A DNA stretch of 64,000 nt from Candidatus Omnitrophota bacterium (lineage in GTDB: Bacteria; Omnitrophota; Gorgyraeia; JAFGHF01), in NCBI GenBank assembly GCA_043805735.1, contig JAZDHS010000004.1, forward strand, positions 583-64,582. Reading direction: 5' to 3'. Position 1 is the first letter of the stretch. Every line of letters starts with the position of its first letter. Below, one piece after another: positions 25,093 to 54,347 of this stretch. A program made the translations under genes and the position numbers. A model generated the notes under the pieces. It was not told where the DNA came from, did not search any database, and saw nothing but the letters and a program-made list of their open reading frames with translations.

Positions 25093-25096
25093 ACCG

Positions 25097-36305: not shown

Positions 36306-36344
36306 GCTAAGCCTTTAATATAGGCTTGATTTGAAGGTACAGCT

Positions 36345-37645: not shown

Positions 37646-37655
37646 GCCCGCTCCT

Positions 37656-39386
37656 ATGCGCATCGGTCTTTTAAAACGGATTACGATTGCCCTTTTTCTC
37701 TTTCTGATCGCCAGCCTCGCCTATAACCAGGTGATCCGCGGCCCCTACTACTTTCAGTTAAGCCAGAACAACCGCATTAAATTGATTAAAATGGATGCCC
37801 CGCGCGGTTTTATTTATGACCGGCAAGGCCGGGTAGTAGCGGGACTGCGCCTGGTCTTCAACGTTGCGGTGTTGCCCCAAGAGGTAGAGGATATCAAAAA
37901 AACGATTGCCGCGATCAGTCCTTTAGCCGGCGTTTCCGAATCGGCATTAATGCAATATTATAAGAATAACTTTTTTGCCCCTTTTCTTCCGGTCGTGATT
38001 CTCCACGATGTACCTAAAGAAAAAGCTATCCTTTTGGAGTGCCAGGAGTTTCGTATCCCGGGCCTGTTGATTCAAACTCAACCGCTGAGGAATTACCCAT
38101 ACGGCAAAAGTATCAGCCATCTCCTCGGGTATTTGGGTAAAATTACCAAGGAAGAACTGCGGCAGTTGAAGGAATATGGTGTTTGGGACCGCGATATCTT
38201 GGGTCGAACCGGAGTGGAAGGGCAGCTTGACCCGTTCTTAAGAGGTCAAACCGGCGGTAGACAAATAGAAGTGAACAATCGCGGCCGTCAGGTCCGGGAA
38301 TTGGGGGTAAAACAGCCGTTGCCGGGTGAGGATTTATATTTAACTATTGATGCTGAGCTACAGGCGTTGATCGGTCGTTTAATGGAAGGGCATAGCGGTG
38401 CCTGCGTAGTGCTTGATCCGCGCAACGGTGAAATTTTAGCCATGGTTAGTGAGCCCAGTTTTGACCCTCAGATTTTTGTGATGGCGCTGAACAATAAGAC
38501 CGAAGCGGCGCGAACAGTTTCACGCTACCTTAGTTCCGGCGAAGGCGTGTTGGTTAATCGGGCTATCTCGGGCGCATATCCCGCAGGTTCCATTTTTAAA
38601 ATCGTGGTCGCCGTCGCCGGCTTAGAAACTAATGCGATTACGCCCAATTCCACAACGCAATGCACCGGCAGCATCAGGGTGGGGAATCGTTCCTTTAATT
38701 GCTGGAAACTGGATGGCCACGGTACAGAGAATATCTATACTGCCTTGGCCCATTCCTGTAACGTATTTTTTTATCGCTTGGGCCTTGCGCTTGGGCCGGA
38801 TAAGATTGCCCTTTTTGCCCGTAGCTTTGGTTTGGGTGAGCGTTCCGGCATCGATCTATCCGCGGAAGCGGCCGGCAATGTTCCTTCAAAAATATGGAAA
38901 CTAAAGACTAAAAAAGAAAAATGGTACGATGGAGAAACCGCTAATCTGGCCATCGGGCAAGGATATCTTTTGGTCACGCCGCTGCAGATGGCACGGCTGA
39001 TTGCCGCCATTGCCAACGGCGGATATCGCGTTAGGCCGCATCTGGTCAAAAAGTTTGAGGATAAAGAAACAGCGGTAGTGCGGGAAAAGTTGGCGCTTAA
39101 ACCCTCCACTTTAGAAGTGATTAGAGAAGGGATGCGCATGGTTGTGCAAAATGATGACGGGACCGGCCACCGGGCGTATATTAGTGGAGTGCAGTGGGCG
39201 GCTAAGACCGGTACTGCCCAGGCTGGAACGGGAACGGCGCATGGGTGGTTTGGCGGATTCTATCCCTTTCATGATCCCCGCTTGGCCATAGTTGTTTTTT
39301 TGGAACACGGCGGAAGCGGAGGAGATGTACCGGCGCTCATCGCGCGAGAAATTGTCGAATATTTCCGGACCAATAAAGTGAACTAA
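37656..39386 (+). CDS. mrdA: Peptidoglycan D,D-transpeptidase MrdA (PBP2)
   Basis: PBP dimer domain and transpeptidase motifs SxxK (GSIFK), SxN (SCN) and KTG (KTGTAQ). Confidence 0.95.
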   Translation: MRIGLLKRITIALFLFLIASLAYNQVIRGPYYFQLSQNNRIKLIKMDAPRGFIYDRQGRVVAGLRLVFNVAVLPQEVEDIKKTIAAISPLAGVSESALMQYYKNNFFAPFLPVVILHDVPKEKAILLECQEFRIPGLLIQTQPLRNYPYGKSISHLLGYLGKITKEELRQLKEYGVWDRDILGRTGVEGQLDPFLRGQTGGRQIEVNNRGRQVRELGVKQPLPGEDLYLTIDAELQALIGRLMEGHSGACVVLDPRNGEILAMVSEPSFDPQIFVMALNNKTEAARTVSRYLSSGEGVLVNRAISGAYPAGSIFKIVVAVAGLETNAITPNSTTQCTGSIRVGNRSFNCWKLDGHGTENIYTALAHSCNVFFYRLGLALGPDKIALFARSFGLGERSGIDLSAEAAGNVPSKIWKLKTKKEKWYDGETANLAIGQGYLLVTPLQMARLIAAIANGGYRVRPHLVKKFEDKETAVVREKLALKPSTLEVIREGMRMVVQNDDGTGHRAYISGVQWAAKTGTAQAGTGTAHGWFGGFYPFHDPRLAIVVFLEHGGSGGDVPALIAREIVEYFRTNKVN

Positions 39387-39390
39387 CCCT

Positions 39391-40527
39391 ATGTTTGATC
39401 ATTATCGCCGCGATTTTGATGTGGTCTTATTTGTCAGCCTGTTGCTTATTTTTGCGATTGGCCTGGCCTTTTTACATAGCGCCAGTTATAAACGCTATTC
39501 GACACGGGAAGAGTATCTTCAGGAAAGCCTGGTAGTAAAGCAGATGTTGCGTTTTGTCCTTGCTCTCATTGCGGGGATTCTCGTAATCAGGATCGGCCAT
39601 CAGAAATTACTTGAATTTGCCTATGTTCTATATGGTCTGAATATTTTGTTATTAGTTTTGGTCTTACTTTTGGGCGAGACCAGGTTAGGGGCGCAGCGCT
39701 GGATTAAACTGGGGATGATTGGTTTTCAGCCTTCGGAGTTCAGTAAGCTCATCATCGTGTTTACCTTGGCCCGTTATCTTGGACAGAAAGAAAGCGCTTT
39801 AGGAAGAGATTTGTTTTGGCAGGGCGGTTGGCGCAATAGCGGGGTCTTGGCCAGCGCCTTTTTGCTGGTTGGCATTCCTTTTATATTAATTATGAAACAG
39901 CCGGATTTAGGCACCGCTCTTACCCTCGTTCCCATTCTTTTGACGCTATTGTATGTCTGGGGCGTCTCTTTTAAAACCCTAGCCCTGCTTTCGTTGCCCG
40001 CGGTTTTGGCTTCGCCTTTTTTATGGCAGATGCTTAAGCCCTACCAAAAAAGAAGAATTCTGGTGTTTATTAATCCTAATGCCGATCCCTTGGGAGCGGG
40101 CTATACGATTATTCAATCGAAGATTGCGATTGGCTCAGGGGGGTTATTCGGTAAAGGGTGGCTGGCCGGAACACAAAACCAATTGAATTTTTTGCCCGAA
40201 CGCCACACCGATTTTATCTTTTCAATAGTCGGGGAAGAGTGGGGGTTTATCGGGGCGGCATTACTTTTAGTTTTATACATTGTCTTAATCTCCCGGGCTT
40301 TTTTGATTGCCCAGCGTACTCTTTATTCATCATCTCGCCTTTTAGCCTGCGGCATAATTGTCGTGTTGGTATTCCAGGTAGTGGTCAATATCGCGATGAC
40401 GATGGGCCTGGTTCCGGTGGTTGGCCTACCTTTGCCGCTGATTAGTTATGGCGGCTCATCCCTGTTTATGACTGTTGTTTCGCTGTCCTTACTCTTAAGT
40501 ATCGGGATGAGAAGGTCAGTATTCTAA
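39391..40527 (+). CDS. rodA: Peptidoglycan glycosyltransferase RodA (SEDS)
   Basis: SEDS family (FQPSEF, DFIFS) following mrdA. Confidence 0.9.
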   Translation: MFDHYRRDFDVVLFVSLLLIFAIGLAFLHSASYKRYSTREEYLQESLVVKQMLRFVLALIAGILVIRIGHQKLLEFAYVLYGLNILLLVLVLLLGETRLGAQRWIKLGMIGFQPSEFSKLIIVFTLARYLGQKESALGRDLFWQGGWRNSGVLASAFLLVGIPFILIMKQPDLGTALTLVPILLTLLYVWGVSFKTLALLSLPAVLASPFLWQMLKPYQKRRILVFINPNADPLGAGYTIIQSKIAIGSGGLFGKGWLAGTQNQLNFLPERHTDFIFSIVGEEWGFIGAALLLVLYIVLISRAFLIAQRTLYSSSRLLACGIIVVLVFQVVVNIAMTMGLVPVVGLPLPLISYGGSSLFMTVVSLSLLLSIGMRRSVF

Positions 40528-40641: not shown

Positions 40642-40800
40642 GTCATTGACAAAAAGTAACGTTTGAAAAAGGCAAACCATTTGTAAGAATGGGGCGCAAA
40701 GCCACAGGTCCCGTAACGTAACAGGGATAGCTGGGTTGCCAAGCGTAGACAAAGAATATCAACATCCGGCCTTTGGCTTTGCCAAAGGCCTTTTTAATTG
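40642..40800 (+). ncRNA. Candidate ~160-nt small RNA or structured 5' leader ending in an intrinsic terminator
   Basis: Predicted TSS about 7 nt after the -10. The transcript ends with hairpin GGCCTTTGGC-TTT-GCCAAAGGCC followed by TTTTT at about 40769-40800. The listed ORF start at 40736 would have to read through this terminator. Confidence 0.4.
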
Positions 40801-40816
40801 CGCAAAAGAGAAGACG

Positions 40817-41158
40817 ATGATTAAAAGACCAAACAATCCTAACGGTAATGCCCATCGCGTGATTACTTTCTTGACCCGCGATGAAATTGACTTTCTGGAT
40901 AAGATTGGCAAAGACGCCCTTTTTAGCTCCGGGATCAAACTTTCACGCAGTAAAATTATTTCCGCGATGGTTAATGTAATTCGTAAGCTCAATATTCAAG
41001 CCGATGGCCTGCATTCGAAAAAAGAGCTGGAGCATCGCATTATCGAAACGATAAAAAACCTGAATCTGACGCTGGCCGATAAATCCAAAAGGCAGCAGGA
41101 AAACAAAACGCCGCCAGCGAACGAGCATGAGGCTAAGGAACATGAACAAGCTTTTTAA
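40817..41158 (+). CDS. Hypothetical ribbon-helix-helix-like small protein
   Basis: A beta-strand-like RVITFLT followed by two helices (RDEIDFLDKIGKD, SRSKIISAMVNVIRKL) suggests a CopG/Arc-type RHH, with a charged low-complexity C-terminus. The start was moved to the Met after the terminator hairpin. Confidence 0.5.
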   Translation: MIKRPNNPNGNAHRVITFLTRDEIDFLDKIGKDALFSSGIKLSRSKIISAMVNVIRKLNIQADGLHSKKELEHRIIETIKNLNLTLADKSKRQQENKTPPANEHEAKEHEQAF

Positions 41159-42032
41159 TGCGCTTACTATGACTAATCGCGGGATACGCTATAAAATGGC
41201 CATGGCCTTCACGCTGATGTCGGTTATTCCAATGCTGGTATTTGGGTATTTATTCCTGCACTACCTTTTTCCTCGGCTATCGTCTTTTTTGCACATTTCC
41301 TTAGTATTTATTTTTACGATACTTCTAATGATCGCCGGATACTATTTTGCCAAAAAGATTGTCTATCCGGTAATTAAACTCAGCGCTCATGCCCGCGGTA
41401 TTGCCGATGGCAACTTCGATAAAAGATTAGATATGCCGCGTGATGACGAGATCGGCGAATTGGGCAGCACCTTGAATCACCTTTCCTTAAAACTAAAAGA
41501 GAATATTCGGGAAAATACTTTACTGCAGCATAAGACCAGAGAGCTTACCGTGCGCGATGAACTTACCGGTCTCTATAACGAACGCTATATCCGTGAGCGC
41601 TTAGACGAAGAGATTAAGCGGGCGGTGTCCTATCAACGTCCCTGCTGTTTTATGATGATGGAAATAAACCACTTCGTCAGTTTACGCGCAACCAGGGACG
41701 AGAAAGAAGCTGATCAGCTGCTGAAGAAGATCGCGCAAATCTTGCTGGCCGCGACTACGCCAATTGATAAAGTAGCGCGCTTAAACGAGACGCGGTTTAG
41801 CGTTATTTTTCCGGAAAAAAATAAAAAACAATGTCTGGAGGTTACCCAAAATTGCCGAAAAGATATTGCACGCTTGGTCCAAAGCACTTCCGGGTGGGCC
41901 GGATTAAGCATTAGCGCAGGCATTAGTTCGACACCTCTTGACGGAACTACTGTGGCCGAGCTCATCGACCAGGCGCTCTCTTTTATGGAAAGGGCCGGCA
42001 ATGATGGCGAAAATAGCATTATTATTTCCTAA
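41127..42032 (+). CDS. Membrane-anchored HAMP-domain protein with a degenerate GGDEF domain
   Basis: N-terminal TM segments, HAMP (VIKLSAHARGIADGNFDKRLD), then a GGDEF fold (DELTGLYNERYI...SISAGIS...ERAGNDGEN). The catalytic GG(D/E)EF is replaced by NETRF and the DxD metal site is absent. Start may be ATG 41142 or 41169. Confidence 0.75.
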   Translation: MRLRNMNKLFNALTMTNRGIRYKMAMAFTLMSVIPMLVFGYLFLHYLFPRLSSFLHISLVFIFTILLMIAGYYFAKKIVYPVIKLSAHARGIADGNFDKRLDMPRDDEIGELGSTLNHLSLKLKENIRENTLLQHKTRELTVRDELTGLYNERYIRERLDEEIKRAVSYQRPCCFMMMEINHFVSLRATRDEKEADQLLKKIAQILLAATTPIDKVARLNETRFSVIFPEKNKKQCLEVTQNCRKDIARLVQSTSGWAGLSISAGISSTPLDGTTVAELIDQALSFMERAGNDGENSIIIS

Positions 42033-42099: not shown

Positions 42100-43158
42100 A
42101 TGTATGAGATGCAGAAATTACTCAGGATGGTGGTGGAGAAAACGGCGTCCGATTTACATATTACGGCTGGGGCTCCGCCGCAGTTGCGTATCGATGAAGT
42201 GCTGGTTAATGCCGGCGAACAGATCTTGATGCCCGACGATACCAAGAAACTGACCTATAGCCTTTTGGCCCAGGAAGAAATTAAGGAATTCGAGGAGAAT
42301 CTGGAATTGGATTCGTCGTTCGGAATCGAGGGCCTGAGTCGTTTTCGTCTCAATGTCTACCAGCAAAGAGAAGCGGTGGGCTGTGCGATCAGAAGAATTC
42401 CCTTTGAGATTATGACGTTGGAGCAATGCGGCTTACCGGTAAAAATAGTGACGCAGATGTGCCAAAGGACAAAAGGCCTGGTACTGGTAACCGGGGCGAC
42501 GGGAAGCGGAAAATCCACTTCGTTGGCGGGGATGATTAATAAAATTAATCAGGAAAGGCGCTGTCATATTATTACCGTAGAAGATCCGATCGAATATACC
42601 TTTAAGAATTTAAAGTCCTTAATCGAACAGCGCGAAGTCGGCAAAGATACCCATTCCTTTGGCGATTCGTTAAAACATATACTTAGACAGGATCCCGATG
42701 TCATTTTAGTAGGGGAAATGCGCGACTTAGAGACTATCCAGTCGGCGCTGAATATCGCCGAGACCGGCCACCTGGTCTTTGCGACCTTGCATACCTCCGA
42801 TGCGGTTCAGACGGTGAATAGAATCATTGATGTCTTCCCCGCCCATCAGCAGCAACAGGTGCGCACACAGCTATCGTTTGTGCTGTTGGGAATTATGGCC
42901 CAGCAGTTAATACCCCGTCCCGGCGGGGGAAGAATATTGGCAACTGAAATACTAGTGGCCAATCACGCTATTCGCAGCCTGATCCGCGAGGCCAAAACGC
43001 ACCAGGTCTATTCAGTTATTCAAACCGGTCTCAAAGAAGGAATGAGTACGATGAACCAGGCGTTATATGAACTGGTGTTACGTAATATTATTTCACAGGA
43101 CGAGGCGATGCTGCGCACTACCGAACCCAAAGACCTAGAGCGATTGTTTAAAAGCTAA
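42100..43158 (+). CDS. pilT: Type IV pilus retraction ATPase PilT
   Basis: 352 aa secretion ATPase without an N-terminal MshEN domain. Walker A GATGSGKST, Asp/His boxes, and a PilT-type C-terminus (AIRSLIREAK). Confidence 0.9.
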   Translation: MYEMQKLLRMVVEKTASDLHITAGAPPQLRIDEVLVNAGEQILMPDDTKKLTYSLLAQEEIKEFEENLELDSSFGIEGLSRFRLNVYQQREAVGCAIRRIPFEIMTLEQCGLPVKIVTQMCQRTKGLVLVTGATGSGKSTSLAGMINKINQERRCHIITVEDPIEYTFKNLKSLIEQREVGKDTHSFGDSLKHILRQDPDVILVGEMRDLETIQSALNIAETGHLVFATLHTSDAVQTVNRIIDVFPAHQQQQVRTQLSFVLLGIMAQQLIPRPGGGRILATEILVANHAIRSLIREAKTHQVYSVIQTGLKEGMSTMNQALYELVLRNIISQDEAMLRTTEPKDLERLFKS

Positions 43159-43173: not shown

Positions 43174-43635
43174 ATGGAAGCACGTAAAGACCCACATGCA
43201 TTTCGCGAGCAGCTCGGCGAGCTGCTCTTACAAAGAGGCGTGATTAATTCCGAGCAGCTCAAGCATGCCCTGGAGCTGCAGAGTGAGGGTAATATGCTCT
43301 TAGGGGAGATATTGTCTGAGCTTGGCTATGCCTCCGAGGAAGATATTGTCCAGGCGCTAGCGTTACAACATGATTTCCCGTATTTGCCATTGGCCAATTA
43401 TGAGGTTGAGGCGGAAATTATCAAGTTAATTCCGGAGGAATTAGCGCGTCGCTACCATATTCTACCCGTAGATAAAATGGGCGATATCTTAACCGTGGTT
43501 ACCGATAATCCGCTGGAGCGCTCATTTTTCAAAGAGATCGAAGCGCTGACAAAATGTAAAATTGAAATATTTGTCTCAACGTCTAGAGAAATCAAAGAGG
43601 CGATTGAGCGCTATTATAGCGAAAAGAAAAAGTAA
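43174..43635 (+). CDS. Standalone MshEN / T2SSE_N-domain protein (candidate c-di-GMP receptor)
   Basis: 153 aa made only of the GspE/PilB N-terminal fold. It carries a tandem 24-aa motif, QLGELLLQRGVINSEQLKHALELQ, a 5-aa spacer, then LLGEILSELGYASEEDIVQALALQ. This closely matches the published MshEN c-di-GMP-binding consensus RLGxx(L/V/I)(L/V/I)xxG(L/V/I)(L/V/I)xxxxLxxxLxxQ. Confidence 0.75.
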   Translation: MEARKDPHAFREQLGELLLQRGVINSEQLKHALELQSEGNMLLGEILSELGYASEEDIVQALALQHDFPYLPLANYEVEAEIIKLIPEELARRYHILPVDKMGDILTVVTDNPLERSFFKEIEALTKCKIEIFVSTSREIKEAIERYYSEKKK

Positions 43636-43652: not shown

Positions 43653-45365
43653 ATGCCTAGATCATTAAAAGAACAATTAGTGGCTATCCTTACCGAGAAC
43701 AAACTGCTTTCCCAAACGCAGCTGGAGCAGGCGCTGAAGCTGCAAAAGGAAAAAGGGGGACGCCTGAGCAACATTCTAATATCTTTAAAATTTATTCAGG
43801 AAAAAGATTTAATGCTGGCCTTAAGCAAAAGCTTGAATATTCCTCCGATTAATTTGCAAAAGATTGAGATTAAGCCCGAGGTGATTAAAGTTATTTCTGA
43901 AAAAGTAGCCCGGCATTATCAGCTCATCCCGATTGCGAAGATGTCCAATAGCCTAACCGTAGCGGTGAGCGACCCCTTGAATATTTTCGCGCTTGACGAT
44001 ATCCGGGCGCTGACAAACTTCAAAATTAAATCGGTGCTCAGCACCGAAGAAGACATTAAACATGCGATTAATAAATATTATTCCAAGGATGCGCTAGATA
44101 TTGTCAAGGATGTAATCAAAGATAAAGAGGCAAAGATAGAGACCATTACCCAACAAGAAGCAACGGTGGATACCAAGGCGCTTCTGGAGATGATTAATGA
44201 GGCGCCGATCGTCAAGATTACCAACATGATTTTGCAGGAAGGGATTAAGAGGAAATCCAGCGATATCTTAGTTGAGCCCTTGGAAAAGACGATGCAGATA
44301 CGCTATCGTGTCGATGGTATTTTGGAGCTTGGCGAGGCTCCGCCACGGAGCATGCATGATGCCATTGTGACCAGGATTAAAGTTATGTCGCGTCTGGATG
44401 TGGCCGAACACCGCCTGCCGCAAGATGGAAGATTCAAAGTCCAGCTGCCCGGAAAAGAAGTCGATTTTCGCGTCTCCGTGCTTCCTTCGAGTTTTGGCGA
44501 AAAACTGGCCCTGCGTATTTTGGATAAGAGCACGCTGATGTTAGACGTCGATAAGTTGGGGCTGGAAGAACAACCGCTCTCAGTGCTGAAAAAATGCGCC
44601 CAGCGTCCACATGGGATGATTTTAGTTTGCGGCCCGACCGGCTGTGGCAAAACCACGACCCTTTATTCTGTGCTTAAATACATTGATTCTATTGAGGATA
44701 ACTTAGTAACCGTAGAAGATCCGATCGAATATCTTTTGGATGGAATCAACCAGGTAACGGCCGCTCCGGAAATCGGGCTGACCTTTGCCGCGGCGCTGCG
44801 TTCTATTTTACGCCAGGACCCGGATATTATCATGGTCGGAGAAATCCGAGATTTTGAAACTGTCGATATCGCGATTAAGGCCGCGCTGACCGGCCATTTG
44901 GTCTTAAGCACCTTGCATACTACCGATGCGCCGGGATCGCTGGTGCGCCTGGCGAATATGGGTGTGGAACCGTTTTTGATTACCGCGTCCTGTCTGATGG
45001 TGGGCGCGCAGCGGTTAGTCCGCGTGCTTTGTCCGGAATGCAAGGAAACATATCTGGCAGTGCCGGAGCTAAAGAAAAAGTTGGGAATAAAAAACGACAA
45101 AGAAATTACTTTCACCCGGCCCAAAGGCTGTGCTAAATGCGGCAACAGCGGTTACAAGGGCCGCATTGCCATCATGGAGTCATTGGAGATTACCGCTCAG
45201 ATTAAGGAGTTGATTTTACAGAAAGCTCCCGAGGCACATATCAAGAATGCTGCCCGCAAGGAAGGTATGCGCACGCTGCGGGAGAATGGTTTGGCGATAG
45301 CAATGAAAGGAATTACATCAGTCGAAGAAGTGCTCAGGGTTACCGCTACGGACGAAGAGATATAA
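43653..45365 (+). CDS. pilB: Type IV pilus assembly ATPase PilB/GspE family (paralogue 1)
   Basis: 570 aa with an N-terminal T2SSE_N-like domain, Walker A GPTGCGKTTT, tetracysteine CPEC...CAKC, and Asp/His boxes. Confidence 0.9.
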   Translation: MPRSLKEQLVAILTENKLLSQTQLEQALKLQKEKGGRLSNILISLKFIQEKDLMLALSKSLNIPPINLQKIEIKPEVIKVISEKVARHYQLIPIAKMSNSLTVAVSDPLNIFALDDIRALTNFKIKSVLSTEEDIKHAINKYYSKDALDIVKDVIKDKEAKIETITQQEATVDTKALLEMINEAPIVKITNMILQEGIKRKSSDILVEPLEKTMQIRYRVDGILELGEAPPRSMHDAIVTRIKVMSRLDVAEHRLPQDGRFKVQLPGKEVDFRVSVLPSSFGEKLALRILDKSTLMLDVDKLGLEEQPLSVLKKCAQRPHGMILVCGPTGCGKTTTLYSVLKYIDSIEDNLVTVEDPIEYLLDGINQVTAAPEIGLTFAAALRSILRQDPDIIMVGEIRDFETVDIAIKAALTGHLVLSTLHTTDAPGSLVRLANMGVEPFLITASCLMVGAQRLVRVLCPECKETYLAVPELKKKLGIKNDKEITFTRPKGCAKCGNSGYKGRIAIMESLEITAQIKELILQKAPEAHIKNAARKEGMRTLRENGLAIAMKGITSVEEVLRVTATDEEI

Positions 45366-45379
45366 TAATCGGGTTTTGC

Positions 45380-47110
45380 GTGGAGGTTGAAACTAAAGTG
45401 CCCAGGCTTTTGACGTTAAAAAAGAAGCTCAATGAGATCCTGCTGGAAAATAAATTAATCAGCGCCAAGGACCTTGAAAAAGCCCTAAGTATCCAGAAGG
45501 AAAAAGGGGGGCAGTTGAGCAAGATTCTTGTTGAGCAGAAAATGATTTCCCAACAGGATTTGATGGTTTGCCTGGGTACACAGCTGGGAGTGCCGCCAAT
45601 CAATCTGGCCAGGTATAAAATCGATCCCGAAGTAGTTAAATTCATCCCCGAACGTATTGCCCGCCATTATATGGTCATACCAATATCCAAAATTAAGAAT
45701 GTGATTAGCGTGGCCATGGCCGATCCGTTGAATATTTACGCCTTAGACGATATCAAGGTCTTAACTAAATTAGAGGTCCAGACGGTCATTACTACGCCCG
45801 ACGATATTATGCAGGCAATTGACAAATATTATAAGGGTAAAATACAAGATATGGCCGATATTATCCAAAAGGCGCAGGAAACGGTGGAACTGCAGACTGT
45901 GGAAGAAGGGCCAATGCCGGGCGATATTGAAGAGCTGACTAAGGCCAGTGGAGAGGCGCCGTTGATTCAATTAGTCAATGTCGTGATTCACGAGGCCATC
46001 AAAAGTCGGGCCAGCGATATTCATATTGAACCGTTTCAGGAGCGCGTGCGTATCCGCTACCGTATTGACGGAATCTTGCATGATTCCTTTAACTTCCCCA
46101 CGAAAATCAAAAATGCCTTACTTACACGGATAAAAATTATGTCTAATTTAGACATCACCCAAAGACGTATTCCCCAGGACGGCCGGTTTAAAGTGAAGGT
46201 CGAAAATAAAGAAGTCGATTTCCGCGTCTCGGTGCTGCCTACCGCTTTCGGCGGAAAAATTGTGCTTCGGGCTCTAGATAAAGCCAACCTATCTATCGGT
46301 CTGGACCAATTAGGATTTTCAGCGCACACTTTAGTTAAATTTAAGGAAGCAATTGCTAAACCCTACGGCATGATGCTACTCACTGGGCCTACCGGTTGCG
46401 GTAAGTCCACTACCCTTTATTCCATTCTCAACCAGCTTAATTCCAACGATCGCAATATCGTTACTATTGAAGACCCAATAGAATATCAGGTGGAGCGGAT
46501 TACCCAAATTGCGGTCAAGCCCGAGATCGGCTTAACCTTTGCCAGCGGATTGCGCTCAATATTGCGCCAGAGTCCGGATGTAATCATGGTCGGTGAGATC
46601 CGCGACGGTGAAACCGCCGATATCGCCATTAAGGCGTCGCTGACCGGAGAACTAGTGTTGAGCACGCTGCATACCAACGATGCGGCTTCGGCAATTACCC
46701 GGCTGATCGATATGGGCGTGGAACCGTTTTTAATTGCCTCGTCCGTAATTATGGTGGCCGCGCAGCGGCTTTGCCGGCGGGTTTGCCCGCATTGTAAAGA
46801 GCCTTACGAGGTCGCCAAGTCCGTTCTGGATAGCCTGGAAATTTCCGCCCAAAAAAATACACTGTTTTATCATGGTAAAGGCTGCCCCCATTGCAATCAT
46901 ACCGGCTACTATGGACGGATGGGGACATTGGAGATTTTAACTGTTGACGACGCGATCAGAGAAATGATTATTAAGGGGGCCTCAAGCACACATATTAAAG
47001 ACTATGCCCGTAAGCACGGCATGAGGACGCTGCGTGAAAACGGTCTGGAAAAATTTATACAAGGCGAAACAACGCTGGAAGAAGTCTTGCGGATGACCGC
47101 TGAGGAATAA
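45380..47110 (+). CDS. pilB: Type IV pilus assembly ATPase PilB/GspE family (paralogue 2)
   Basis: 576 aa with the same architecture (GPTGCGKSTT; CPHC...CPHC). Its N-domain resembles that of paralogue 1. The start is GTG 45380 or GTG 45398 after GGAGG. Confidence 0.9.
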   Translation: MEVETKVPRLLTLKKKLNEILLENKLISAKDLEKALSIQKEKGGQLSKILVEQKMISQQDLMVCLGTQLGVPPINLARYKIDPEVVKFIPERIARHYMVIPISKIKNVISVAMADPLNIYALDDIKVLTKLEVQTVITTPDDIMQAIDKYYKGKIQDMADIIQKAQETVELQTVEEGPMPGDIEELTKASGEAPLIQLVNVVIHEAIKSRASDIHIEPFQERVRIRYRIDGILHDSFNFPTKIKNALLTRIKIMSNLDITQRRIPQDGRFKVKVENKEVDFRVSVLPTAFGGKIVLRALDKANLSIGLDQLGFSAHTLVKFKEAIAKPYGMMLLTGPTGCGKSTTLYSILNQLNSNDRNIVTIEDPIEYQVERITQIAVKPEIGLTFASGLRSILRQSPDVIMVGEIRDGETADIAIKASLTGELVLSTLHTNDAASAITRLIDMGVEPFLIASSVIMVAAQRLCRRVCPHCKEPYEVAKSVLDSLEISAQKNTLFYHGKGCPHCNHTGYYGRMGTLEILTVDDAIREMIIKGASSTHIKDYARKHGMRTLRENGLEKFIQGETTLEEVLRMTAEE

Positions 47111-47127: not shown

Positions 47128-48330
47128 ATGCCTTACTTTAAATATATCGCCAAGGATCAGGAAGGTAAAACCATTAACGCCACCCTGGAGTCCAAAGACA
47201 AAAACGGGGTCGTGGAATTGTTGCGCAAGAGAGACATGGTTATCCTCTCTATAGATGAAACGAAAGATAAACCCTTTAAGGTAAAAACCAGTGGCAGCGT
47301 CCAGATCGATGACTTGGTAATCTTTTCCCGCCAATTGGCCACGATGGTCGACAGCGGAATTCCCTTGGTTCAGGCCCTGGATGTATTGCAGGAACAAATC
47401 CAGAAGTCTTACTTTAAGGGCGTTATCGGCAGTTTACGCGATGGTATCGAGACGGGCAGCAGCCTTTCCGATGCGATGGCCCAGCACCAGCGGGTTTTTT
47501 CCGACCTGTTCGTGAATATGGTGCGTGCCGGTGAATCCAGCGGTATGCTTGATGATATTATGGAGCGCGTTGCCGATTATATCGAGAAAACCGCGGCCCT
47601 GCAGCGTAAAGTAAAATCCAGTTTAATTTATCCGGCGGTAGTCGTGTCTATGGCGATTGGAATTACGGTGATTCTACTGATCAAGGTAGTACCGACATTT
47701 AAAGGGATTTTTGATAGCCTGGGGGGAGAGTTGCCGATGTTAACCCAGATTCTAATTAATGTTAGTGATTTTTTACAGCATTACTTCATGTTTATTGTCG
47801 TCAGCCTGTTTGTATTGGGAGTGACAGTGGAGCGGCTTTCCCGCACCGCTAAAGGCCGGCTTTTTATTGACCGGCTGTTATTACGTTTGCCGGTTTTTGG
47901 TTTACTCTTGCGCAAAGTGGCGATTGCCCGCTTTTCGCGGACTTTGTCTACTTTAGTCAAAAGTGGTGTGCCCATTTTGAATTCCTTAGAGATTGTTTCC
48001 GCCACCGCTGGCAATAAAGTAATCCAAATGGCCGTGGAGCAGGTGCGCAATAGTATCCGCGAGGGTGAAAACATTTCCGAACCCCTATCGCGTAGTGGTA
48101 TTTTTCCTCCGATGGTCACCAGGATGATCGGAGTTGGGGAGCAAACTGGTGAATTGGAAAAAATGCTTTCTAAAATTGCCGATTTCTACGAAGAACAGGT
48201 CGATGTGGCAGTCAGCAGCATGACCTCACTTATCGAACCCCTTATCATTGTTGTACTTGGGGTGGTTGTCGGTGGCATTGTCGCCGCGATGTTCTTACCC
48301 ATCTTTAAGATTACCGAGCTGATCAAATAG
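47128..48330 (+). CDS. pilC: Type IV pilus inner-membrane platform protein PilC (GspF family)
   Basis: 400 aa with two GspF repeats and three TM segments, directly after the pilB genes. Confidence 0.9.
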   Translation: MPYFKYIAKDQEGKTINATLESKDKNGVVELLRKRDMVILSIDETKDKPFKVKTSGSVQIDDLVIFSRQLATMVDSGIPLVQALDVLQEQIQKSYFKGVIGSLRDGIETGSSLSDAMAQHQRVFSDLFVNMVRAGESSGMLDDIMERVADYIEKTAALQRKVKSSLIYPAVVVSMAIGITVILLIKVVPTFKGIFDSLGGELPMLTQILINVSDFLQHYFMFIVVSLFVLGVTVERLSRTAKGRLFIDRLLLRLPVFGLLLRKVAIARFSRTLSTLVKSGVPILNSLEIVSATAGNKVIQMAVEQVRNSIREGENISEPLSRSGIFPPMVTRMIGVGEQTGELEKMLSKIADFYEEQVDVAVSSMTSLIEPLIIVVLGVVVGGIVAAMFLPIFKITELIK

Positions 48331-48518: not shown

Positions 48519-49040
48519 ATGTTAAGGTACAATCGCAAAGGCTTTACATTAGTTGAAATCATGATTGTAGTTGCTATCATAGCTCTCTTAGCCGCGATTG
48601 CCATACCGAACTTGCTGCGCGCGCGTTTGAATGCGAATGAAAATGCGACCGTAAATAGTTTAAAGACTCTTTGCGCCGCAATGAATTCATTTGCCGGCAC
48701 TAACATCCAATCTGGTGTACCGACCTATCCGGCCGGGCTGGATAACCTGACTCCCAACGTGATTCTCTCTCCTGAGCCACCCTATCTAGATGTGGCCTGG
48801 AGTGACGCCGCTGGCCCTGTGCAGCGGTCCGGTTACTCCTACACCTATGCCGGGTCAGATGTAGATGGAAATGGGACCACCGAGAGGTTCTGGATTGACG
48901 CTATTCCGCTGTCATATCAAACCTCAGGTGTACGCAGTTTCTACATTGATGAAGGCGGTGTGGTGTATGGCGGTGATAACGCTGGTGCTGCTACCGGTGT
49001 TTATGGCACCCCCGGAGCGCCATATGTAGCTACGGAATAA
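48519..49040 (+). CDS. pilA: Type IVa pilin (prepilin with N-terminal methylation motif)
   Basis: Leader MLRYNRKG followed by FTLVEIMIVVAIIALLAAIAIP, with Glu5. 173 aa, one Cys, no C-terminal disulfide loop. Confidence 0.85.
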   Translation: MLRYNRKGFTLVEIMIVVAIIALLAAIAIPNLLRARLNANENATVNSLKTLCAAMNSFAGTNIQSGVPTYPAGLDNLTPNVILSPEPPYLDVAWSDAAGPVQRSGYSYTYAGSDVDGNGTTERFWIDAIPLSYQTSGVRSFYIDEGGVVYGGDNAGAATGVYGTPGAPYVATE

Positions 49041-49160: not shown

Positions 49161-49694
49161 ATGGCCTATTATATTAAGATTAATAAAGAAAAAGGGTTTA
49201 GTTTAATAGAAATATTGATTGTTTCGGCAATTTTGGTCATTATGTCCACGATTGCTATACCGGCTTTACTGCGCCAAAGGCTTAATGCTAACGAGAGGGC
49301 AACGATAAAAAGTTTAAAAACACTCTACCTTTCTTTGAATTCTTTTGCGGCCAGAAATATCCAGGGTGGTATTGCGATCTTTCCCGCCAACCTTGATGCG
49401 CTGACTGCCAACCAGATTGCCTCTCCTGAGCCACCATATCTGGATGTAGCCTGGAGTGATGCCGCTGGCCAAATATTCAGATCCGGTTATCAATATAGCT
49501 ATCGTCCCTTTGATTCCGCTGACCCCGATGGTACCGCCGATCGGTTCTGGATCGACGCCATTCCTGCTGGCTATCAAAGCTCAGGTGTGCGTAGTTTCTA
49601 TGTTGACGAGGGCGGGGTAGTCTATGGTTTTGATAATGCCGGTATAGCCACGGGCGCTTATGGTATTCCGGCAGGTTGGGTTGCTGCGGAGTAA
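49161..49694 (+). CDS. pilA: Type IVa pilin paralogue (longer 12-aa leader)
   Basis: Leader MAYYIKINKEKG followed by FSLIEILIVSAILVIMSTIAIP. The C-terminal half is highly similar to pilA1 (SPEPPYLDVAWSDAAG, SGVRSFYxDEGGVVYG). Confidence 0.85.
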   Translation: MAYYIKINKEKGFSLIEILIVSAILVIMSTIAIPALLRQRLNANERATIKSLKTLYLSLNSFAARNIQGGIAIFPANLDALTANQIASPEPPYLDVAWSDAAGQIFRSGYQYSYRPFDSADPDGTADRFWIDAIPAGYQSSGVRSFYVDEGGVVYGFDNAGIATGAYGIPAGWVAAE

Positions 49695-49703: not shown

Positions 49704-50669
49704 ATGAGTAAAGAAAAAATTATAATCGGTCTGGATATTGAGAAACATTCCCTTAACCTGGTGAAGTTGGCCAAAGGGGCTAGCGGTGAAATCAAACTGC
49801 TGGATTTCGCTAGCGTATCCTTAAGCCCGGAATTGGCCCCAGCGGAAAAGGCGCGCCAGCTGGAAAACTTTGTGCGCGCCAAGGGGATTAACGCCCTGGC
49901 CGTGAACGTCGGCATCTCCGGGGAAACGGTAGTAGTCAGGTATATTGATTTACCGAAGATGAAAAAAAACGAAATCTCCCAGGCCCTGGCCTATGAAGCC
50001 CAGCAGTATATTCCGTTTAAAATGGAAGAAGTAATTTTTGATTTTCATCCGCTCAACGTTGCCCCCACGGGCAATAACCGGATGAAGGTGCTTTTGGTCG
50101 CCGCCAAAAAACAAGCGATTCTCAATTTCATCAAGTCAATTCAGCAAGCCGGCCTTAGGCCTAATCTCATTGACGTCAATTCGTTTGCGCTGATTAACTG
50201 TTTCACCGTCAACGGGCCAAAAGTAAAAGAAAGCGATATCTACGCTGTCTTGAATCTCGAGTTTGACGTGGTCAATATTAATATTCTTCAGGGTGGGTTG
50301 CCTTTTTTTACCCGTGATATTTCTTTGGAAGAGGCCAATGCGATCTCGGCCGCAAAAGGCGAAGCAAAGGCGGAACTGTTTGCGCCGGCCATGCCGCTCT
50401 TAGCCAGTTTAATCCGTGAGGTCAAAATTTCAATTGATTATTTTGAGAGCGAATTTGAAAAACAGGTGCCAATATTATATTTAAGCGGAGCAGGCGCGAA
50501 GTTTCCGGAGCTGGTGCAGGCTTTTTCCAGCCAACTCGGCCGGGAAGTTTTGCTTTGGGATCCCTTGCGTACCTTTGCGGTTGATGCCGCGCTGGGTGAC
50601 AGGCAGTTACTAAAAGATACTTCTATACAATTAGCCTTGGCCAGTGGCTTGGCGTTACGGGGAATATGA
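49704..50669 (+). CDS. pilM: Type IV pilus assembly protein PilM
   Basis: Actin-like ATPase fold of about 320 aa, the typical PilM size. Confidence 0.8.
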   Translation: MSKEKIIIGLDIEKHSLNLVKLAKGASGEIKLLDFASVSLSPELAPAEKARQLENFVRAKGINALAVNVGISGETVVVRYIDLPKMKKNEISQALAYEAQQYIPFKMEEVIFDFHPLNVAPTGNNRMKVLLVAAKKQAILNFIKSIQQAGLRPNLIDVNSFALINCFTVNGPKVKESDIYAVLNLEFDVVNINILQGGLPFFTRDISLEEANAISAAKGEAKAELFAPAMPLLASLIREVKISIDYFESEFEKQVPILYLSGAGAKFPELVQAFSSQLGREVLLWDPLRTFAVDAALGDRQLLKDTSIQLALASGLALRGI

Positions 50670-51154
50670 GCGTGGAGAGAAGCGGTTTCACCTTAATTGA
50701 ATTGATGATTGCTGCCGCGGTTTCATCGGTGGCGCTATTGGGCATTTTGGGTGTATTTAGCGGTTGTTTCGGTGTTGACGAATCGGCGGGACAGCTAACT
50801 ATTGCCGTCAACGGCGCACGTTATAAGATTGAAGAAATGCGTACCGAACGCGATATGGGCAACCCCCGTGCCGCCGGGCATTATAACGAAACCATCCCCA
50901 ATTGTTCCTTAGCGCACAGCGTGGCGATTGATATTATTGACGACGGATCGGACCCGGATGGCGTTAGCGAAGCGACGTTATACTGGATAAGCGTTTCGGT
51001 CACCTGGATGACGCGTGGCGGAAGAATCATCGGCGAAGATGACGGTACCGGAGGCGGCGCTGCGCTTGACGGCATCCTTAATGGCGGCGAAGATAGCAAT
51101 AATAATAATTTACTTGATTCGCCGGCGCAGATAGTTACTTTAATGAGGCTCTAG
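50666..51154 (+). CDS. Minor pilin / pseudopilin with prepilin-type N-terminus
   Basis: SGFTLIELMIAAAV class III signal at the N-terminus, GspH/PilV-like size. Confidence 0.75.
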   Translation: MSVERSGFTLIELMIAAAVSSVALLGILGVFSGCFGVDESAGQLTIAVNGARYKIEEMRTERDMGNPRAAGHYNETIPNCSLAHSVAIDIIDDGSDPDGVSEATLYWISVSVTWMTRGGRIIGEDDGTGGGAALDGILNGGEDSNNNNLLDSPAQIVTLMRL

Positions 51155-51156: not shown

Positions 51157-51693
51157 ATGCGCGAACGCGGTTTTACTTTAATCGAACTGATGATTGTATT
51201 AACGGTATTTGGTTTAATTCTTGGTGCGATCTTTGCCGTAATGTATGTAGGCAAGCAGTCCTGGTCGCAAGGCGGGACAAAGGTGGAAATACAACAAGAA
51301 GCGCGCCGGGCAATGGAAGAGATAGTGCGCGAACTGCGCGAAAGTGCCCAGGATGTTGTGACTGGCGTGCTTGCTGACGGAACTGCTTATAATGCGATTA
51401 CCTTTCGTATGCCCGATGATATCGATGGCGACGGAGATGTATTGGACGCTAACGGCGTTATTGAGTGGGGAACTCCGATTTCCTTTTCTGTAGGCGGTAT
51501 AAACAATGAGCAGCTTTTACGCACCAGCGCGGGCAATACCACGGTTCTTGGCAATCATGTGGTCAGCCTGCAGTTTACTCGCAATGCAGCTACTCCCAAT
51601 GTTATCGAAATCGACATCCAAACCCAACGGACTTCCCAGGAACAAAGGGTTTTTCAGGCGGCGTTAAGCTCAAAGGTGACACTGAGGAACTAA
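51157..51693 (+). CDS. Minor pilin (PilW/GspJ-like) with prepilin-type N-terminus
   Basis: RGFTLIELMIVLTVFGL class III signal at the N-terminus. Confidence 0.75.
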   Translation: MRERGFTLIELMIVLTVFGLILGAIFAVMYVGKQSWSQGGTKVEIQQEARRAMEEIVRELRESAQDVVTGVLADGTAYNAITFRMPDDIDGDGDVLDANGVIEWGTPISFSVGGINNEQLLRTSAGNTTVLGNHVVSLQFTRNAATPNVIEIDIQTQRTSQEQRVFQAALSSKVTLRN

Positions 51694-52739
51694 TGCGCCA
51701 AGAAAAAAAGCTAAAGCGTTTTCTGTTTGTGAAAAACAAAAAAGGTATTGTGCTGGTTGCCTGTTATTTTGTTATTGCTACGCTGGCGGTATTGGGTAGT
51801 GCATTTCTGGCCCGGAGCGTAAGCGAACAAAGGTTTGCCGAAAGGCAGCGCTCTTCGACACAGGCATTTTATTACGCCGAAGCCGGCCTGGAGAGGGCGG
51901 CGTGGTACCTCACCGATGTGGCGCCCGATGGCTCAAATGATGGTAACTGGCGTACTAGCAATTATCCGGCGCAGCCAGGAACAGGCGTAAATGACCCGCG
52001 GCAGGAAACATGCTCGGATGGTAGTTATATTATTTGGGTAGAGAACGAAGACAGTGATGTGCGTATCTATGCCCGTGGCACATCCGGAGGTATTACTCGA
52101 GAGCTTACTCAGCGGATTTCGGTGGATTCCATTCCTGCGCCTTTTGAATATGCCGTCTATGTCGGCGGAGCAATTAACGATTCCGGGGCGACTAATCTCA
52201 CGGTCAATGGCGATACACAAGAAGATGGTCCGGAATTGCCAACTGTAGATATGGCTTATTTCAGCGGTTTAGCTATCCCGAGCCAAAGGATTACCGGAAA
52301 CTATACTTTTGTCGCCGGTACCTATAACGGTGTTTGGTACATTGACGGCAATGTGAATATCGAAAGCAATGTGACGATTAACGGTTCGATTATTTCCACG
52401 GGTCATATTTCCACGGCCGGTTTTAACACGATTACGGTCAATGCTACCTTGCCGCAGCCGGCTTTGATCGCCCAGGGTAACTTTGATTTTAAAGACAGCT
52501 CGGTGATTACGGTCAACGGCATTATTTATGTCGGCGCAGATATGACTGGAAACTTTCTCTTGCAGCAGGCGGAAAACATTACCTTTAACGGCACGCTGAT
52601 TGTCGCCGGAAATCTCAATATCCAAAATAGCAATATGGTGGCCATTACTTATGATGAAGAGGCCATGGAAGATCCGCCGGTAGGTTTTTCCGGTTCGGGT
52701 GAAGTGCGACTTGTGGAACATGATTGGCAGGAATTTTAA
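51693..52739 (+). CDS. PilX-like pilus assembly/tip protein
   Basis: N-terminal TM segment plus the PilX_N-like motif (SSTQAFYYAEAGLERAAWYL). The C-terminal ~200 aa is N/T/G-rich repeats suggesting a beta-helix. Confidence 0.65.
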   Translation: MRQEKKLKRFLFVKNKKGIVLVACYFVIATLAVLGSAFLARSVSEQRFAERQRSSTQAFYYAEAGLERAAWYLTDVAPDGSNDGNWRTSNYPAQPGTGVNDPRQETCSDGSYIIWVENEDSDVRIYARGTSGGITRELTQRISVDSIPAPFEYAVYVGGAINDSGATNLTVNGDTQEDGPELPTVDMAYFSGLAIPSQRITGNYTFVAGTYNGVWYIDGNVNIESNVTINGSIISTGHISTAGFNTITVNATLPQPALIAQGNFDFKDSSVITVNGIIYVGADMTGNFLLQQAENITFNGTLIVAGNLNIQNSNMVAITYDEEAMEDPPVGFSGSGEVRLVEHDWQEF

Positions 52740-52756
52740 CCAGAGATGCGCTTAAG

Positions 52757-53377
52757 ATGATTGAAATTAATCTTTTACCCACGGAATTACGCGAAAAGAA
52801 GACCTTGGCCGTGCCGCAGATATTTCAGGCTAAGCTTGTGGGGATAGTTGTGCTTTGCATTTTAGCTACGCATCTTTTGCTGATTGTGGTGGCTGCAATG
52901 AGCGCAAAGCGGTTGGCTCACTTTAAGGTGAAACTGCAGACGCTTACTCCTAAGGGCAAAGAGGTCGCGCAACTCCAGGTAGAACTTAACGAAGCCAATA
53001 AAAAGATTCCGATGATTGAGCAGTTGATGCAAAATCGCATACTTTGGTCAAAAAAGCTCAGCCGGGTAAATGACCTAATGGTGCCTCGCGTGTGGTTGAG
53101 TGAGTTTTCTCTCAGAGAAGAGAAAGAAGAATTAGAGAACAAGGGTACGGGAAAACTGCTTATTATCCGCGGTAGTGCCGCTTCGCGTACCAAAGATGAG
53201 CCGGCTCTGGTCGGTATGTTTATGCAGAACTTGAAAGACGACCCAGTTTTTTCGGAAGATTTTTCGGATATAGAATTAGGCCCGATCCGCAAAAGGTTGA
53301 TTGGGGACACCGAGGTCATGGATTTTAATTTATATTGCCGGATTAAACCGGAACGCATAAAGGCCTTATCACGATGA
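52757..53377 (+). CDS. pilN: Type IV pilus assembly protein PilN
   Basis: Starts with the PilM-binding motif MIEINLLP, then a single TM segment. Met 52757 preferred over the listed 52724. Confidence 0.8.
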   Translation: MIEINLLPTELREKKTLAVPQIFQAKLVGIVVLCILATHLLLIVVAAMSAKRLAHFKVKLQTLTPKGKEVAQLQVELNEANKKIPMIEQLMQNRILWSKKLSRVNDLMVPRVWLSEFSLREEKEELENKGTGKLLIIRGSAASRTKDEPALVGMFMQNLKDDPVFSEDFSDIELGPIRKRLIGDTEVMDFNLYCRIKPERIKALSR

Positions 53378-53970: not shown

Positions 53971-54347
53971 TCCGCCAACGCGTTTTTATTTTTTTAGGAA
54001 TTTTTTTAATGCCTTGCCTGGCCTTTAGGTTTTGCGTGGCAGAAGAAGATCTGTTTGCCTATAAGGACAGTGGAAAGCGCGATCCTTTTATAGCTTTAGT
54101 TAGCGAACAGGGCCGCTACATCGCCGAAAGCGGAGAAATGTACTCATCAAATGAGTTGCGGGTGAGCGGTATTTTGTGGGATCCCGAAGGTAAAAGTTCG
54201 GCGTTAATTAATGACCAGATGGTGGCCGAAGGCGAAACATTTTACGGTTTCCTGATTAAAGAAATTCGTCAAGACCATGTTACTGTTTCCCGTGATGGCC
54301 AAGACTATACCATCTGGGTTATCGGAGAAAAGGAGGATCATCAATGA
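53967..54347 (+). CDS. pilP: Type IV pilus assembly lipoprotein PilP-like
   Basis: Small secreted or lipoprotein with a beta-rich C-terminus, between pilO and pilQ. Confidence 0.6.
   Translation: MIRQRVFIFLGIFLMPCLAFRFCVAEEDLFAYKDSGKRDPFIALVSEQGRYIAESGEMYSSNELRVSGILWDPEGKSSALINDQMVAEGETFYGFLIKEIRQDHVTVSRDGQDYTIWVIGEKEDHQ

Follow-up and report, generated by a model that had tools for sequence, protein, structure and literature searches.

Tandem PilB-type ATPases in a single pilus locus

A 64,000-nucleotide stretch from a Candidatus Omnitrophota bacterium (assembly GCA_043805735.1, contig JAZDHS010000004.1, positions 583 to 64,582 of the forward strand), here called the window and numbered from its first letter, encodes two adjacent PilB-type extension ATPases within one type IVa pilus (T4aP) locus. 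The first gene, pilB1, lies at 43653..45365 on the + strand and encodes PilB-1, a protein of 570 residues with Pfam MshEN and T2SSE domains and all catalytic motifs intact. The second gene, pilB2, follows at 45380..47110 on the + strand and encodes PilB-2, which also contains MshEN and T2SSE domains and has 576 residues from GTG 45380 or, probably, 570 residues from GTG 45398. The initial annotation of the window had claimed two adjacent full-length PilB-type ATPases in one pilus locus, and this was borne out by the open reading frames (ORFs), the Pfam domains, end-to-end matches to PilB and the surrounding pil genes. From the analyses described below, we propose that PilB-1 and PilB-2 are an old, co-inherited and catalytically competent pair and not spare copies.

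The whole pilus region is encoded on the + strand, with mreB-mreC-mreD-pbp2-rodA upstream (35223-40527) and RNase G after PilQ. The gene order is HAMP/GGDEF, pilT, stand-alone MshEN, pilB1, pilB2, pilC, two pilins, pilM, minor pilins and pilNOPQ. Upstream of the ATPase pair, a HAMP and degenerate GGDEF protein (41127..42032; Pfam HAMP and GGDEF), a conserved neighbor, precedes PilT (42100..43158), the sole retraction ATPase in the locus, which scored 465 bits against TIGR01420 (cutoff 319) and matches Pfam T2SSE. A stand-alone MshEN-domain protein of 153 residues (43174..43635; Pfam MshEN 64.8 bits) then directly precedes pilB1. Neither pilT nor the 153-residue MshEN gene was mentioned in the initial annotation.

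Downstream of the pair, the single-copy platform protein gene pilC (47128..48330) was recognized by two stretches of Pfam T2SSF and by NCBIfam PilC models at 432–443 bits. The pilin genes had been described as lying immediately downstream of the ATPases, but pilC intervenes. PilA1 (48519..49040) is a major-type pilin with an N_methyl motif and the class III signal KGFTLVE, and PilA2 (49161..49694) is, by sequence comparison, a recent duplicate of PilA1 with 65% identity. These are followed by PilM (49704..50669; Pfam PilM_2, 128.7 bits), two minor pilins with N_methyl motifs (50666-51154 and 51157-51693), a PilX_N-like protein scoring below the PilX_N cutoff (51693-52739), a PilN-like protein recognized by position and by 32–48% identity to syntenic ORFs (52724-53377), PilO (53374-53970; Pfam PilO), a small protein in the PilP position (53967-54347) and the PilQ secretin (54344-55855; Pfam Secretin, Secretin_N and STN), all on the + strand. 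The locus therefore encodes one complete T4aP machine with a single platform protein, a single retraction ATPase and a single alignment/secretin set, yet two extension ATPases.

Domain architecture and family assignment

PilB-1 and PilB-2 share 51% identity and 72% similarity across their full length by pairwise alignment. Residue numbers (e.g. H206, D389, H415) refer to window PilB-1 unless marked as PilB-2 numbering. Pfam MshEN was matched at 72 bits in PilB-1 and 80 bits in PilB-2, in agreement with the MshEN-like N-domain initially reported for both paralogues, and T2SSE at 449 and 468 bits. The solved Geobacter PilB was matched end to end (E 1e-165 for PilB-1 and 1e-170 for PilB-2); for both proteins, the Geobacter and Myxococcus PilB structures align from residue ~10–15 to the C-terminus (E 1e-163 to 1e-170), whereas GspE structures align only from about residue 98–183 onward.

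Both ATPases contain Walker A (GPTGCGK[T/S]T), the Asp box (EDPIEY) and Walker B with the catalytic Glu (MVGEIRD), together with the N2D Arg fingers, the second His-box histidine and four Cys. The His box is complete in PilB-1 (H415 and H422). In PilB-2 it reads TGE...LHT; the second (gamma-phosphate) histidine is kept, and the first His-box position reads LTGELVLSTLHT, with Glu for His at codon 46649-46651. The statement that Walker A/B, the Asp box, the His box and the tetracysteine are retained in both copies thus holds for every motif of PilB-1, but not for the first His-box histidine of PilB-2. Walker A, the Asp box, the atypical Walker B with the catalytic Glu, the N2D Arg fingers and the tetracysteine zinc motif are present in at least 98% of each clade.

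In the P-loop of both ATPases, Cys replaces Ser (GPTGCGK; codons 44643-44645 and 46397-46399). This Cys was found in 108/118 PilB-1 and 40/116 PilB-2 sequences, while all outgroups have Ser, and PilB-1 has a second Cys three residues ahead of the P-loop Thr. Such a pattern could conceivably make the P-loop sensitive to redox state.

The true start of PilB-2 is most likely GTG 45398 and not the longest-ORF GTG 45380. A GGAGG sequence is present at 45382-45386 (11 nt upstream of GTG 45398), the resulting MPR N-terminus resembles that of PilB-1, and the protein from this start is identical to a 570-residue NCBI protein (P0121, on a 101,010-bp contig) labelled GspE. An exact look-up of the PilB-1 sequence returned no match.

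The top NCBIfam model for both proteins was TIGR02538, the type IV-A PilB equivalog, at 643.2 bits (PilB-1) and 650.3 bits (PilB-2), slightly under its cutoff of 675.65. Scores against NF053534 (TfpB) were 469.8 and 485.9 bits with a cutoff of 850, and neither window protein is TfpB. The NCBI name of P0121 is explained by TIGR02533 (GspE), whose cutoff of 630.25 bits is just passed by PilB-2 at 633.4 bits and not by PilB-1 at 585 bits. Taken at face value, this name and score would make PilB-2 the GspE of a type II secretion system (T2SS), possibly one encoded elsewhere in the genome. The PilB-2 score with the PilB model is higher, however (650 bits), the N-domain is MshEN, as in PilB, and solved PilBs match PilB-2 from residue 15, which GspE structures do not. 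In addition, PilB-2 is part of a clade specific to Omnitrophota, whose members are always encoded in a pilMNOPQ locus with pilB1 on one side and pilC on the other; the neighbors of PilB-2 are pilC, pilins and pilMNOPQ in place of the gspC, D and F-M genes, and an MshEN domain stands in place of the GspL-binding N1E. A GspE identity is therefore extremely improbable. NCBI labels for relatives of the pair vary between TadA, GspE and PilB, and this mixture is an annotation problem for these proteins in public records.

Conservation of the pair across Omnitrophota

The nearest homologues of both proteins are found in Candidatus Omnitrophota metagenome-assembled genomes (MAGs), from 83% identity downward. 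The order MshEN, PilB-1 type, PilB-2 type, PilC was observed in at least 18 further distinct Omnitrophota-type loci, obtained by context look-ups and by a metagenome scan that took the stand-alone MshEN protein as its query, and 25 more PilB-1/PilB-2 protein pairs were found on shared contigs. The first ATPase gene is always of the PilB-1 type and the second always of the PilB-2 type, and pilB1 and pilB2 either overlap by as much as 4 nt or are separated by up to ~74 nt. In most cases pilT and the GGDEF protein come before the cassette, with rodA and RNase G on either side of the whole; immediately ahead of PilB-1, every Omnitrophota locus seen encodes the stand-alone MshEN protein. In locus L043, only one PilB, ancestral in appearance, stands between this MshEN protein and PilC. 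A contig scan with PilB-1 gave no close relative, the best match having 46% identity.

In a neighbor-joining tree of 234 homologues, the two search sets split cleanly into two clades with equal within-clade divergence (0.50 vs 0.49) and a between-clade distance of 0.78. PilB-1 types and PilB-2 types were each monophyletic with 100% bootstrap support in a broader tree (141 sequences, 60 bootstraps). Both clades span deep and shallow Omnitrophota lineages, and the deepest PilB-2-type sequences, recovered in a third search, are also from Omnitrophota (e.g. RIFCSPLOWO2_12_FULL_44_17). As had been suspected, neither copy is a pseudogene: catalytic residues are kept in essentially all of the >115 sequences per clade, and the two clades have diverged equally.

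Several additional observations were made during these searches. In the Omnitrophota contig L034 (~12128-15146), the PilB-2 gene is split into two ORFs of 198 and 407 residues, by a frameshift/assembly error or as a real pseudogene. Proteins of ~1370 residues with a GGDEF-AAA_16-HEAT architecture adjoin the MshEN/PilB cassette in some Omnitrophota loci (L099, 389-4528; L021, 15873-19982). Locus L048, where pilT and MshEN have no pilB in their vicinity, and L050-L098, soil loci of the ordinary pilB-pilT-pilC kind, turned out to come from unrelated organisms.

Reciprocal loss of conserved residues

PilB-1 and PilB-2 were compared at 127 columns that are conserved in single-copy PilBs of other phyla. 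The ancestral residue has been lost at 9/127 columns in PilB-1 and at 5/127 in PilB-2, with zero overlap. In the PilB-1 clade, H206 of the N2D strand ASDIH(I/L)EP is replaced by Leu, Phe or Met (His in 0/118); in the window this is H206L at 44268-44270, which turns SDIH into SDIL. T326C (44628-44630) and S331C are changes in and before the P-loop, N424T adjoins the gamma-phosphate histidine, and A404V and V286A are also among the PilB-1 losses.

The PilB-2 losses are E283, T334, D389, A411 and H415. D389, in the LRQDPD motif, is Ser in 103/116 sequences of the PilB-2 clade and Asp in 1/116. H415, the first His-box histidine, is replaced in nearly all of the 116 close orthologues (57 Glu, 52 Gln, 4 Val, 2 Leu, 1 His), and because 115 of the 116 are without this residue, its loss in the window is not a sequencing accident. 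The clade also shows T334S and A411S, Gly at E283 in 79 sequences, and mostly Tyr at K502, a position outside the 127 conserved columns. In its own numbering, window PilB-2 carries Asp to S398 (46571-46573, RQDPD to RQSPD) and His to E424 (46649-46651), with further changes of Glu to G292, Thr to S343 and Lys to Y511. The Walker A Lys, the Asp-box Glu residues, the catalytic Glu, both N2D Arg fingers and the gamma-phosphate His are each kept in 114–116 of the 116 PilB-2 sequences, and the zinc cysteines in essentially all of the >115 sequences in each clade.

The distribution of these losses indicates that they are ordered in time, stepwise from deep to intermediate lineages and then to the window lineage. 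The earliest, common to every pair, are those of H206 in PilB-1 and D389 in PilB-2. Deep pairs have F206 in PilB-1 and S389/S334 in PilB-2, with T326 (PilB-1) and H415 and E283 (PilB-2) still present. Intermediate lineages added C326 in PilB-1 and Q415 and Y/F502 in PilB-2, and the window lineage added T424 in PilB-1 and G283 in PilB-2.

Position of the changed residues in solved relatives

Published structures show how the equivalent residues are used in related motors. In G. metallireducens PilB, the T411 backbone of the C-terminal domain (CTD) n+1 contacts T327 in the Walker A loop of CTD n, and the T411 side chain is packed between H413, the first His, and H420, the residue that binds the gamma-phosphate; cooperativity between chains is attributed to the His box (PMC5424180). 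DotB is arranged in the same manner, with CTD n+1 placing T251 and H253 next to Walker A, E235 and H260 of CTD n. PilT R195, the Arg of LR(E/Q)DPD, contacts the neighbor's Asp box in closed interfaces and the neighbor's Walker A Thr in open ones (R195-D161/T133), and PilT D32, in the SDxH strand, is a closed-interface contact. CpaF R347 and its FlaI equivalent serve as a trans finger for the gamma-phosphate. On the basis of these PilB, DotB, PilT and CpaF structures, the PilB-2 changes appear to flank the two elements donated to the neighbor's active site. By the same analogy, the PilB-1 changes map to the face that receives such elements, comprising the P-loop and the surroundings of the catalytic/gamma-phosphate His, and the N2 domain is also altered.

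The first His of PilT is a trans/interface residue, and the consequences of its loss have been measured in P. aeruginosa: PilT H222A gives less twitching, slower retraction and a motor that falls off more, while H229A abolishes function (PMC10187167). Since H222A slows the motor without abolishing its function, PilB-2 lacking the first His is expected to be active but kinetically different. Inactivating changes in one copy had been raised at the outset as a concern, and the first His-box histidine has indeed been lost in PilB-2, but the equivalent loss in PilT slows the motor and does not kill it.

Independent double PilBs in other phyla

An exhaustive profile-free search with PilB-2 identified proteins of ~1000 residues containing two complete PilB cores in the arrangement [MshEN-N2D-CTD]-[N2D-CTD]. 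These fused proteins come from Patescibacteria (Parcubacteria GW2011_GWA2_47_8, KKU82539.1; Ca. Paceibacterota) and include P0358, P0363, P0364, P0367, P0370, P0371, P0373, P0379, P0384, P0398, P0400, P0413 and P0441. They are not assembly artefacts, since the same length recurs in NCBI, JGI, ENA and Logan assemblies. The fused halves are no nearer to PilB-1 or PilB-2 than to other PilBs and form their own N-half and C-half clades, which points to an independent duplication. D389 is replaced by Asn or Ala in the C-terminal core of 9/13 fused clusters, whereas the N-terminal core has Asp in 13/13. The catalytic residues and both His-box histidines are kept in both cores. In the one locus read (L101, 8001-11030), the fused gene lies outside any pil cluster. 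No description of a fused Patescibacteria double PilB was found in the searchable literature, the coverage of which is incomplete.

An independent tandem PilB pair followed by pilC was found in a Planctomycetia MAG (L003; 6196-7923 and 7971-9680) by the contig scan with PilB-1. Its first copy carries D389A and the Asp-box change D356H, and its second copy carries A411S. Among 136 single-core representatives, D389 is present in 119, H206 in 131 and H415 in 127, and the exceptions mostly have PilB-1-like or PilB-2-like signatures. D389 has thus been given up repeatedly, and only where a second core retaining the Asp exists. In the fused proteins, the covalent linkage of two cores implies a physical 1:1 complex.

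Pilins and the number of fibers

Window PilA1 and PilA2 are nearly the same in their C-terminal globular part and differ in their N-terminal helices (FTLVEIMIVVAIIALLAAIAI vs FSLIEILIVSAILVIMSTIAI). The first pilin of L016 is the nearest counterpart of both, and neither is orthologous to the second pilin of relatives, a pattern indicating that the window pair is a recent lineage-specific duplication.

These data bear on the suggestion in the initial annotation that the ATPases are dedicated motors for two fibers, for example a pilus and a pseudopilus; another version of the idea would give each pilin gene its own motor. The window and most relatives do have two pilin genes after pilC, and multiple PilBs in other organisms usually serve distinct machines (PMC11656802), as in Saccharibacteria. 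However, known multi-fiber PilBs each bring their own platform protein, and the window has a single pilC, pilT and pilMNOPQ set. The similarity of the two window pilins as recent duplicates also argues against separate fibers. Furthermore, L023 encodes both ATPases but has only one pilin between pilC and pilM, and pilin number varies from 1 to 3 across loci against a constant ATPase pair. Separate fibers for the two motors are very improbable.

MshEN modules and second-messenger signaling

The cyclic di-GMP (c-di-GMP) binding motif of MshEN domains is a tandem 24-residue RLGxx(L/V/I)(L/V/I)xxG(L/V/I)(L/V/I)xxxxLxxxLxxQ (Wang et al. 2016; NF053729). The three modules of the window cassette scored 58 bits (stand-alone protein) and 45 and 46 bits (PilB-1 and PilB-2) against NF053729, with a cutoff of 38. 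The stand-alone MshEN is the best preserved of the three at the Gly and Gln positions, with four of four Gly and two of two Gln present in the tandem motif but the Arg mostly missing, and could act as a sensor or adaptor for the motor. In both PilB-1 and PilB-2, both Gly of motif I are missing.

The HAMP-GGDEF protein has NETRF in place of GG[DE]EF and, at 301 residues, is without a GAF domain. Orthologues in >15 loci are degenerate too (SDHQF, GDDCF, GPNQF, AGNKF and others) and are usually 470–480 residues long with GAF. This protein is probably not a cyclase. A 140-residue ORF with no Pfam match at 40736-41158, between rodA and the GGDEF gene, overlaps the GGDEF start, and a 97-residue gene occupies the equivalent position in L016.

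The presence of a degenerate GGDEF protein and three MshEN modules hints at second-messenger control, and four near-invariant residues are lost in PilB-2 (the first His-box His, E283, D389 and K502). Both observations would fit a PilB-2 without catalysis of its own, a pseudo-enzyme or regulator acting on PilB-1, perhaps as a sensor of nucleotide or c-di-GMP. The near-complete retention of catalytic and gamma-phosphate residues in PilB-2 speaks against such a role, as do the presence of both histidines in the deep PilB-2 subfamily and the greater number of ancestral losses in PilB-1 (9) than in PilB-2 (5). A related proposal, that one copy is a divergent MshE-like regulator, found no footing, as the N-domains of the two ATPases are similarly degenerate for the c-di-GMP motif and neither is set apart. 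A regulatory, non-catalytic PilB-2 is considered very improbable.

Elsewhere in the window, a long same-strand gene run at 11915-26308 has the look of a dcw (cell-division/cell-wall) cluster by position and gene sizes, and AT skew is unusually negative at 16–22 kb, down to −0.205.

Discussion

Type IV pilus extension is usually taught as the job of one homohexameric PilB. The interpretation favored here, with moderate confidence, is that PilB-1 and PilB-2 form a physically coupled, co-dependent 1:1 extension motor on a single T4aP machine, either as a mixed ring or as two coupled rings. It is favored because of the invariant pairing, the equal constraint on both proteins, the single platform protein, the losses on complementary faces and the fused analogues in Patescibacteria. 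Locus anatomy, conservation, the reciprocal losses and the single-machine setting are directly observed; co-assembly, ring order and kinetic consequences are what we infer from these patterns.

The geometry preferred for this motor would be a mixed hexamer in which the two subunits alternate, creating nucleotide sites of two types. In one type, the ancestral P-loop of PilB-2 would hold the ATP, and the site would be completed in trans by the ancestral Arg387/Asp389 helix and Thr413/His415 loop of PilB-1. In the other, ATP would be bound at the altered P-loop face of PilB-1 (Cys326, Cys331, Thr424, Leu206) and the site completed by the altered trans face of PilB-2 (RQSPD, S-LTG-E). The outcome would be three ancestral and three remodelled sites, the latter probably slower or regulatory. 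Within the same explanation, the pair could instead be arranged as two coaxially stacked or otherwise docked homohexamers. The alternating mixed ring is favored as the most economical account of the complementary-face pattern. The stricter claim of an obligate alternating PilB-1/PilB-2 heterohexamer is put forward only tentatively; a motor of this kind would be the first hetero-oligomer among the PilT/VirB11-like secretion ATPases. If true, its three ancestral and three remodelled interfaces would be analogous to the catalytic/non-catalytic alternation of F1/V1 ATPases, and the fused double-core PilBs of Patescibacteria would be a covalent version of the same solution. Of the hetero-hexameric motor raised in the initial annotation, the idea of a hetero-complex is the reading favored by the evidence, but a mixed ring is not singled out from coupled rings.

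Several observations weigh against a coupled motor. In the deep PilB-2 subfamily, His415 and E283 are present in 117/117 sequences; loss of the His is therefore not required for the pair to exist. Covariation between the paralogues is not strict: L099 combines an ancestral-type PilB-1 P-loop with Q415 in PilB-2, and L100 combines a derived PilB-1 with H415 in PilB-2, and these two loci rule out a strict coupling of PilB-1 T326C with the PilB-2 His loss across genomes. A mutual-information scan of 36 same-contig pairs returned a signal of phylogeny only. The fused double cores could form stacked rings as well as a mixed ring, so their geometry is not fixed. PilB-1 and PilB-2 were sisters in the first neighbor-joining tree (11 outgroups) but had only 25% bootstrap as sisters in the broader sample, so that a tandem duplication inside the phylum is no more than likely. 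Lastly, the best-studied tandem paralogues of the family, PilT and PilU, are separate homohexamers (PMC6821130).

The last point leads to the main rival, in which, as proposed for PilB and TfpB of Acinetobacter baylyi, two independent homohexamers would alternate on one PilC with a division of labor (initiation vs processive extension, speed or regulation). In A. baylyi, a single T4aP depends on a pair of extension ATPases (PMC8213720; PMC11656802), and the PilT/PilU precedent points the same way. All cis catalytic residues and a full N1 domain are kept in both Omnitrophota paralogues, and the PilT H222A phenotype predicts that a ring of PilB-2 lacking the first His would be slower and less tightly engaged (PMC10187167). 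Two independent homohexamers, however, leave the reciprocal losses on complementary faces (cis in PilB-1, trans in PilB-2) without explanation, along with the loss of the same Asp in exactly one core of the fused double PilBs. The invariant gene order and spacing are also typical of stoichiometric partners. This arrangement is judged possible but rather unlikely.

Omnitrophota offer a phylum-wide natural experiment in which a pair has been retained through long divergence with stepwise reciprocal loss of invariant residues that, going by published structures, lie at the inter-subunit catalytic interface. A series of intermediates is available, from a single PilB to a pair with both PilB-2 His-box histidines and then to a pair without the first. 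The Omnitrophota pair and the fused PilBs also provide expressible proteins for distinguishing a hetero-ring from coupled rings and for defining the roles of the first His and the RQDPD Asp. Omnitrophota and Patescibacteria are ultra-small and probably host-dependent, and pili are thought to be central to them. A specialized motor may bear on this lifestyle. No prior description of an Omnitrophota or Omnitrophica pilB pair, or of tandem pilB, was found in the searchable literature, although coverage was incomplete.

Comparison with known systems

Each ATPase resembles canonical PilB (G. metallireducens 5TSG/5TSH, M. xanthus 3JC8) in having an MshEN N1D, an N2D, a CTD and the zinc motif and in being encoded in a T4aP-type locus. 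Canonical PilB, however, is the product of a single gene and forms a homohexamer that contains H206, D389 and H415, which the window splits between two genes. More than one PilB-type ATPase per genome is also found in Saccharibacteria TM7x, haloarchaea and Clostridium perfringens, but there each has its own platform, locus and fiber, whereas one platform serves both ATPases here.

PilF of Thermus thermophilus has multiple N-terminal MshEN/GSPII-type modules. This 913-residue protein (PDB 6F8L) is similar to the Omnitrophota cassette in being an extension ATPase with several MshEN modules, of which the cassette carries three; in PilF they lie in one chain with one core, while in Omnitrophota they are spread over three proteins with two cores. 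The fused PilB of Patescibacteria is like the pair in that two complete cores are obligatorily together and the RQDPD Asp is lost in one core only. It differs in being covalent, with one MshEN N-domain, an independent duplication and both His-box histidines kept.

PilT and PilU likewise belong to this superfamily, are tandem paralogues and serve one machine, the second depending on the first. Unlike the window pair, they drive retraction as separate homohexamers, and no reciprocal interface losses have been described for them (PMC6821130). A functional parallel is A. baylyi, in which two PilB-family extension ATPases, PilB and TfpB, both apparently active, serve one machine (PMC8213720). TfpB is phylogenetically separate, at a distance from PilB like that of GspE or MshE, whereas the Omnitrophota ATPases are 51% identical, always adjacent, conserved across the phylum and marked by reciprocal losses of invariant residues. 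Whether two extension ATPases cooperate or form hetero-oligomers was posed as a question in a 2024 review, prompted by the A. baylyi proteins (PMC11656802). Two extension motors on one machine are thus already known from A. baylyi, and the Omnitrophota pair makes the hetero-oligomer question testable.

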